A stretch of 64,000 nucleotides of DNA from assembly GCF_003334255.1 (NCBI RefSeq), contig NZ_QOWU01000021.1. One strand, written 5' to 3'. The stretch is from Escherichia coli. Its GTDB lineage: Bacteria > Pseudomonadota > Gammaproteobacteria > Enterobacterales > Enterobacteriaceae. Under the pieces are notes generated by a model, which made no database searches, had not been told where the DNA came from, and saw only the letters and a list, made by a program, of their open reading frames with translations. Within the stretch, counting starts at the first letter, position 1, and every line of letters starts with the position of its first letter. The position numbers and the translations under genes were made by a program. This document shows, one piece after another, positions 10,646 through 12,145 of the stretch.

Positions 10646-10674
10646 ATCTCCCGGTTTTTTCGCCGGGAGATTTT
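10646..10674 (+). terminator. rho-independent terminator after ubiI
   Basis: atctcccgg-ttttttcg-ccgggagat stem-loop followed by TTTT. Confidence 0.7.
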
Positions 10675-10690
10675 CCTCATTTGAAATAAA

Positions 10691-10887
10691 CTAATTTCAC
10701 CTCCGTTTTCGCATTATATTTTCTAATGCCATTATTTTTTGATTTAGTGTTTTTTGACATTTTTTTAGCTCTTAATATTGTCTTATTCAAATTGACTTTC
10801 TCATCACATCATCTTTGTATAGAAACTGGTGTATTTTTTGGTTTTTTATTCTGTCGCGATTTTTGCATTTTTTAACCATAAGCTAAT
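10691..10887 (+). promoter_or_regulatory. gcvTHP control region: AT-rich leader with three CTAAT motifs (GcvA-type sites) upstream of gcvT
   Basis: ctaat at 10691-10695, 10723-10727 and 10883-10887; spacing resembles the known upstream (two adjacent) and promoter-proximal GcvA sites; exact promoter not resolved. Confidence 0.35.
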
Positions 10888-11050
10888 GTGATGATCAATT
10901 TTACCTTATGGTTAACAGTCTGTTTCGGTGGTAAGTTCAGGCAAAAGAGAACGATTGCGTTGGGGACCGGGAGTGGCTCCGATGCTGGGTTTCGTGGTGA
11001 TAATTTCACCATGAAAAAGTTGTCAGCCCCGCTTATTCAATGAGGACAAG

Positions 11051-12145
11051 ATGGCACAACAGACTCCTTTGTACGAACAACACACGCTTTGCGGCGCTCG
11101 CATGGTGGATTTCCACGGCTGGATGATGCCGCTGCATTACGGTTCGCAAATCGACGAACATCATGCGGTACGTACCGATGCCGGAATGTTTGATGTGTCA
11201 CATATGACCATCGTCGATCTTCGCGGCAGCCGCACCCGGGAGTTTCTGCGTTATCTGCTGGCGAACGATGTGGCGAAGCTCACCAAAAGCGGCAAAGCCC
11301 TTTACTCGGGGATGTTGAATGCCTCTGGCGGTGTGATAGATGACCTCATCGTCTACTACTTTACTGAAGATTTCTTCCGCCTCGTTGTTAACTCCGCCAC
11401 CCGCGAAAAAGACCTCTCCTGGATTACCCAACACGCTGAACCTTTCGGCATCGAAATTACCGTTCGTGATGACCTTTCCATGATTGCCGTGCAAGGGCCG
11501 AATGCGCAGGCAAAAGCTGCCACACTGTTTAATGACGCCCAGCGTCAGGCGGTGGAAGGGATGAAACCGTTCTTTGGCGTGCAGGCGGGCGATCTGTTTA
11601 TTGCCACCACTGGTTATACCGGTGAAGCGGGCTATGAAATTGCGCTGCCCAATGAAAAAGCGGCCGATTTCTGGCGTGCGCTGGTGGAAGCGGGTGTTAA
11701 GCCATGTGGCTTGGGCGCGCGTGACACGCTGCGTCTGGAAGCGGGCATGAATCTTTATGGTCAGGAGATGGACGAAACCATCTCTCCTTTAGCCGCCAAC
11801 ATGGGCTGGACCATCGCCTGGGAACCGGCAGATCGTGACTTTATCGGTCGTGAAGCCCTGGAAGTGCAGCGTGAGCATGGTACAGAAAAACTGGTTGGTC
11901 TGGTGATGACCGAAAAAGGCGTGCTGCGTAATGAACTGCCGGTACGCTTTACCGATGCGCAGGGCAACCAGCATGAAGGCATTATCACCAGCGGTACTTT
12001 CTCCCCGACGCTGGGTTACAGCATTGCGCTGGCGCGCGTGCCGGAAGGTATTGGCGAAACGGCGATTGTGCAAATTCGCAACCGTGAAATGCCGGTTAAA
12101 GTGACAAAACCTGTTTTTGTGCGTAACGGCAAAGCCGTCGCGTGA
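11051..12145 (+). CDS. gcvT: glycine cleavage system aminomethyltransferase (T protein)
   Basis: 364-aa [55 protein letters not shown]... Confidence 0.97.

Follow-up and report, generated by a model that had tools for sequence, protein, structure and literature searches.

The gcvTHP control region of Escherichia coli is a classic, dissected promoter whose regulation is textbook knowledge. According to the published model, the LysR-type regulator GcvA would bind adjacent upstream sites (about -271 to -214) and a promoter-proximal site (about -69 to -34). Lrp would coat and bend the T-rich DNA between these sites and thereby bring the upstream GcvA near RNA polymerase at a weak extended -10 promoter. 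When glycine is present, GcvA at sites 3 and 2 would activate transcription. Without glycine, or with purines, GcvA and GcvR would repress it; site 1 would also be needed for this, and a repression loop is probably involved. PurR at the start site may contribute a modest extra repression, and CRP bound far upstream would counteract repression.

The literature describes GcvA as an activator of gcvTHP and GcvR as a protein which binds GcvA and thereby brings about repression that is relieved by glycine. Upstream of gcvTHP, GcvA was found to protect two stretches, one of 35 and one of 57 bp (Wilson et al. 1995, as summarized in PMC5002191). According to this summary, both footprints share a conserved 5'-CTAAT-3', which site-directed mutagenesis showed to be important, and an inverted repeat ATTA-N7-TAAT is reported in GcvA sites. 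The title of a paper cited there states that site 1 is required for repression and dispensable for activation. The GcvA consensus has been given as T-N11-A containing CTAAT (PMC3658693).

A second GcvA target is the gcvA/gcvB control region. Two CTAAT motifs are found there on one strand, separated by 22 bp and immediately next to the promoters, as in the canonical LysR layout. Promoters of that layout (OxyR, IlvY, CysB, CatM) possess a recognition site near -65 and an activation site near -35. At looping promoters, such as IHF-assisted sigma-54 promoters, Lrp at ilvP_G and the AraC and GalR loops, the distance between remote and proximal elements is fixed while the T-rich middle is free, and the same holds for gcvT. 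The gcvT control region analyzed here was noticed in a sequence-only reading of a window, i.e. a whole stretch of 64,000 nucleotides of E. coli DNA, because of three CTAAT motifs.

Materials and Methods

Control regions were retrieved via GcvT using one genome per species. This yielded 65 Enterobacteriaceae sequences, window included, in which all three conserved blocks could be anchored; fractions of 65 refer to this set. The gcvA/gcvB control region was fetched for comparison, and GcvB was confirmed by Rfam at 199 bits. Locus, motifs, register, conservation, geometry and promoter position were computed here; what is said on DNA binding by GcvA, on looping and on how glycine, GcvR and Lrp act was adopted from the literature or deduced.

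Results and Discussion

The Locus and Its Three CTAAT Motifs

The RefSeq annotation shows the gene order ubiH, ubiI, the small minus-strand gene yqfI, gcvT, gcvH and gcvP. The region between ubiI and gcvT is that of E. coli K-12. A 901-bp query was 100% identical to MG1655 and was present in 5426 of 5426 complete E. coli genomes; one of these genomes carries the locus on a record labelled as a plasmid, probably an oddity of assembly or labelling. Identity to MG1655 and annotation show that what the sequence-only reading had called a gcvT control region is that of gcvTHP in E. coli K-12. The yqfI coordinates in PMC6001520 give the conversion to the MG1655 genome (U00096.3), whose coordinate equals 3,061,718 minus the window coordinate. 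The ubiI stop codon (10603) and the gcvT ATG (11051) enclose exactly 447 bp with a G+C content of 35.8%, so both the length and the AT-rich character (64% A+T) had been given correctly. Exact copies of CTAAT were found where they had been noted, at 10691, 10723 and 10883, all on the plus strand, which is the strand of gcvT. The plus strand of the 447-bp intergenic spacer contained no copy of ATTAG.

In 20,000 dinucleotide-preserving shuffles of this spacer the mean number of CTAAT motifs on the plus strand was 0.40. The three observed copies thus represent an approximately 8-fold excess, with P = 0.006 for at least three copies on the plus strand and P = 0.048 for at least three on either strand. 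Across the 64 kb the pentamer is rarer than expected (48 copies versus 90), and no other cluster of three within 200 bp exists in the window. The shuffle probabilities, the window-wide scarcity and this singular cluster together argue for clustering beyond chance, with conservation as independent confirmation.

Table 1: Coordinates of the features of the gcvT control region. Site numbers follow the assignment made in the text; the outer limits of site 3 are those we take for its footprint.
Feature	Position	Strand	Details
CRP-like box TTTGATACCCATCACA	10626-10641	+	9/10 half-site positions of TGTGA-N6-TCACA
GcvA site 3	10675-10704	+	CTAAT core 10691-10695, T10687/A10699; limits presumably -271 to -242 with +1 = 10946
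yqfI, 27-aa small protein MSKNTKSKNNGIRKYNAKTEVKLVYFK	10677-10760	-	RefSeq annotation; antisense across GcvA sites 3 and 2
GcvA site 2	10704-10732	+	dyad GCATTA-N7-TAATGC 10711-10729; CTAAT 10723-10727, T10719/A10731
T-rich spacer, fixed length, free sequence	10730-10874		145-146 bp in 65/65
GcvA site 1	10877-10912	+	CTAAT core 10883-10887 in T(10879)-N11-A(10891)
CTTATGGTTAA	10905-10915	+	-35 region and right arm of the 11-bp inverted repeat (sequence)
Extended -10 element TGGTAAGTT of the gcvT promoter	10929-10937	+	TG 10929-10930, TAAGTT 10932-10937
gcvTHP transcription start	10943-10946	+	454 start and RegulonDB distance
PurR-box-like operator AAGAGAACGATTGCGT	10945-10960	+	strongly conserved as AACGTTTGCGT across genera

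All three motifs share the register T-N3-CTAAT-N3-A, namely TAAACTAATTTCA at site 3, TTTTCTAATGCCA at site 2 and TAAGCTAATGTGA at site 1, and each therefore contains the T-N11-A pair listed in Table 1. The surroundings of the cores differ. The conserved block of site 3, CTCATTTGAAATAAACTAATTTCA (10676-10699), holds its CTAAT inside the dyad TGAAAT-N6-ATTTCA (10682-10699). Site 2 is the only one with a perfect ATTA-N7-TAAT (10713-10727), extended there to GCATTA/TAATGC; at site 3 this register offers T-N11-A alone with a left half of TTGAA, and at site 1 it is absent. In this respect site 2 is like the gcvA/gcvB control region, where the motif takes the form ATTAA-N5-CTAAT, both being cases of ATTA(A/G)-N5-CTAAT and hence of ATTA-N7-TAAT. 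Site 1 is bracketed by a perfect 11-bp inverted repeat consisting of TTAACCATAAG (10872-10882) and CTTATGGTTAA. The core of this repeat, CATAAG/CTTATGG, is conserved across Enterobacteriaceae; in most other genera its left part instead forms GGTCAT-N11-ATGACC around CTAAT. A matrix-based prediction of GcvA sites includes the reverse complement of 10881-10910 (PMC2760140, supplementary file 6).

The promoter and the start site, which had been left unplaced by the sequence-only reading, can now be placed. The start-site list of Mendoza-Vargas et al. 2009 (PMC2760140, Table S1) contains a -10 element 'cggtGGTAAGTTcagg' with an extended -10 TG, annotated as 'Known sigma 70 ... gcvTp'. The same list places the beginning of a 454 read at 108 nt upstream of the gcvT start codon, i.e. 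at 10943, 3 nt away from the RegulonDB start. A comparison with ompA left the sign of the column '3 nt from known promoter' both ways, which gives a range of 10940-10946 for +1. Position 10940 would be just 3 nt after the -10 hexamer. The better choice is 10946, since it fits the coordinates we take for CRP, PurR and GcvA. The CTAAT motifs then start at -255, -223 and -63, and start-site mapping, the check proposed along with the motifs, gives approximately these values from the published 454 start.

The GcvA footprints presumably extend from -271 to -242 (site 3), from -242 to -214 (site 2) and from -69 to -34 (site 1). These limits delineate stretches of exactly 57 and 35 bp, the sizes documented. 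With +1 at 10943-10946 the limits of -271/-214 and -69/-34, if correctly assumed, enclose all three CTAAT motifs; with +1 at 10940 the site 2 CTAAT would overrun the presumed limit of site 2 by 1 nt, its final base. The conserved blocks measure 54 bp (10676-10729) and 37 bp (10877-10913) versus the 57 and 35 bp of the footprints. The suggested arrangement of two upstream sites and one promoter-proximal GcvA site is thus borne out by motif positions, by block sizes matching the footprints and by a literature that names CTAAT. Consequently, the three pentamers are very probably the recognition cores of GcvA sites 3, 2 and 1 of the gcvTHP control region, which is the system of Wilson, Urbanowski & Stauffer 1995, Stauffer & Stauffer 1998 and Wonderling et al. 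2000. Their correct recognition from sequence alone may serve as a positive control for the reading of operator architecture.

Conservation and Alternative Explanations

The CTAAT of site 3 was found in 65/65 Enterobacteriaceae and in all 13 genomes of Erwiniaceae, Yersiniaceae and Hafnia, that of site 1 in 63 of the 65 Enterobacteriaceae; at both sites the flanking T and A are conserved as well. Site 2 has an exact CTAAT in 24/65 sequences. The remainder show TTAAT, CTCAT, GTAAT and similar pentamers, mostly with one mismatch. In 48/65 sequences site 2 has ATTAG as its left half, giving the repeat ATTAG-N5-CTAAT, which is the form described for gcvA/gcvB. When 285 five-base windows were ranked by conservation, site 3 came 2nd, site 1 7th and site 2 46th, at a regional mean identity of 0.56. 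Strong conservation is concentrated within 10676-10729 and 10877-10913 and in the -10 element and the PurR box, and every column of the site 1 block CATAAGCTAATG reached at least 85% identity in the Enterobacteriaceae alignment. A 61-nt window spanning sites 3 and 2 had a match in 5426/5426 E. coli genomes, and a 61-nt window spanning site 1 was identical in 5235/5426; all three CTAAT motifs were invariant in the divergent lineages aligned.

Could the three CTAAT motifs simply be functionless chance copies, given that both the pentamer and the intergenic DNA are rich in A+T? With its 5 bp the motif is short, the intergenic spacer is 64% A+T and the either-strand shuffle probability is only 0.048. 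The same-strand value of 0.006, however, speaks for more than coincidence, and so do the fixed spacings described below and the mutational effects documented in PMC5002191. Above all, across 65 genomes site 3 is invariant and site 1 nearly so, whereas the DNA between them stays at the shuffled baseline. The conservation data refute the chance explanation, which retains practically no probability. In principle, the upstream block could be conserved because it codes for YqfI on the opposite strand and not because a regulator binds there: yqfI covers both upstream motifs, and its product was detected experimentally by chromosomal SPA tagging (PMC6001520). But the 27-aa ORF with its start codon is intact in Escherichia only, yet the DNA blocks are conserved far beyond this genus; elsewhere the frame is without a start, interrupted by stops or without a stop codon. 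Even within E. coli the annotation of one strain shows a shorter ORF here, and conservation drops steeply at 10730, well inside the ORF. As the frame is broken outside Escherichia, we rejected yqfI as the cause of the conservation and regard such a coding constraint as extremely improbable.

It is also very unlikely that the blocks are bound mainly by some other factor, be it Lrp or another regulator that recognizes TGAAAT-N6-ATTTCA in site 3 or, in site 1, CATAAG-N23-CTTATG, with CTAAT being incidental. The conserved blocks are indeed larger than CTAAT, and each has a dyad of its own (TGAAAT/ATTTCA at 10682-10699 and the 11-bp inverted repeat spanning 10872-10915). Nevertheless, the footprints and the effects of CTAAT mutations are credited to purified GcvA in PMC5002191 and PMC3658693, and the same CTAAT element occurs at gcvA/gcvB. 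Nor does a scan for Lrp sites rise above chance, although it carries little information: a SELEX-type consensus with 3 mismatches gave 77 matches versus 75 expected in the window and only one weak match in the spacer.

Spacing of the GcvA Sites and Distribution in Enterobacterales

The motifs are held at fixed distances. Site 3 and site 1 are separated by 192 or 193 bp in 65/65 sequences, and in 65/65 the site 1 CTAAT is followed by the -10 hexamer at exactly 49 bp. The spacings of 32, 160 and 192 bp would place the three sites on roughly one helical face. Unlike these distances, the length of the 5' UTR varies among genera from 45 to 160 nt. The DNA of the T-rich spacer, which we take to be the region of Lrp binding and bending at -229 to -92, is free in sequence. 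At 0.61, its identity to E. coli does not exceed the baseline of shuffled copies (0.65 +/- 0.02), and a 61-nt piece of it found a megablast match in only 1287/5426 E. coli genomes. In the E. coli lineages aligned, the spacer differs by substitutions, with no indels. If Lrp helps to form a loop between upstream and proximal GcvA, a spacer of exact length and free sequence is to be expected, and this one fits the published GcvA/Lrp looping model. From the looping promoters mentioned above gcvT differs in being a sigma-70 promoter, in using Lrp as the architectural protein and in having one regulator that both activates and represses.

The T-N11-A of site 1, centred at approximately -61, and CTTATGGTTAA at about -41 to -31 resemble the canonical LysR-type pair of recognition and activation sites. 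In contrast to that pair, site 1 serves repression and not activation, as the title cited in PMC5002191 states, and it is the distant sites 3 and 2 that activate. The gcvT region also differs from gcvA/gcvB in the remoteness of its activating sites, which are located more than 200 bp upstream and depend on an architectural protein.

Outside the Enterobacteriaceae, the genomes of Erwiniaceae, Yersiniaceae and Hafnia keep sites 3 and 2, CTTATGGTTAA, the -10 element and the PurR box at the same spacing. CTTATGGTTAA is conserved in all Enterobacterales families sampled and lies 214 or 215 bp from the site 3 CTAAT in 72/73 genomes. The CTAAT-bearing left half of site 1, CATAAGCTAATGTGATG (aligned to 10872-10892), is absent in Erwinia, Pantoea, Winslowiella, Rahnella, Serratia, Rouxiella and Hafnia. 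Its absence outside Enterobacteriaceae fits the notion that site 1 is dispensable for activation, and this distribution suggests that site-1-dependent repression may be specific to Enterobacteriaceae. The promoter of yqfI would have to be located within the Lrp-covered spacer, which means that both GcvA and Lrp could influence yqfI. We therefore put forward, as a tentative proposal that could well turn out wrong, that selection keeps a base-pair-exact ruler between site 3 and the promoter, that repression by GcvA/GcvR at site 1 is a family-level addition to an older, order-wide activation, and that yqfI, having arisen antisense inside sites 3 and 2, may be coupled in its expression to GcvA occupancy. 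We know of no genetics that addresses the ruler, the family-level addition or the yqfI coupling. The comparative picture, in which the cores of sites 3 and 1 are invariant, site 2 is degenerate, the spacer is exact in length but free in sequence, and the site 1 block is lost outside Enterobacteriaceae, fits the Lrp-assisted looping model and yields modest, testable predictions.

Promoter and Neighbouring Elements

If the promoter spacer is 17 bp long, the -35 hexamer would be TGGTTA at 10909-10914. The consensus promoter scan missed the real extended -10 promoter. Its own pick, TTGACA-16-TATTGT (10754-10781, plus strand, 10/12 positions), which is located inside the T-rich spacer, was rejected as being without start-site support in the one table used for start sites; the TTGACA is conserved in Escherichia and Citrobacter only. 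The near-consensus minus-strand hexamer pair ATGTCA-18-AATAAT (10760-10731, in yqfI) was likewise discarded, as it is without start-site support in one table (PMC2760140).

The right half of the CRP-like box, TCACAC, is conserved across genera. With +1 at 10946 the centre of the box (10633.5) is at -312.5, and a CRP site 'centred at -313' was reportedly described by Wonderling & Stauffer in 1999. The box at 10626-10641 thus agrees with what we take to be that site. It follows the ubiI stop codon and precedes the terminator hairpin of ubiI, CTCCCGG-N8-CCGGGAG (10646-10667), and hence lies inside the ubiI 3' UTR; a terminator scan did not call this obvious hairpin. The PurR-box-like operator fits the presumed PurR footprint of -3 to +17 if +1 is 10946.

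A permissive cmscan of 10550-11150 returned no glycine riboswitch and two sub-threshold matches to unrelated Rfam families. The lack of a riboswitch match argues for a transcriptional, protein-based control of gcvT. Table S1 of PMC2760140 contains a second, single-read 454 start 81 nt before gcvT (approximately 10970) with the '-35-like' sequence GTGGTGATA; this read may stem from RNA processing or from a minor start. The leader (11020-11050 of the window) ends in a conserved CCCCGCTTATTCAAYGAGGA just 5' of the start codon, and this conservation exceeds what a Shine-Dalgarno sequence alone would need.
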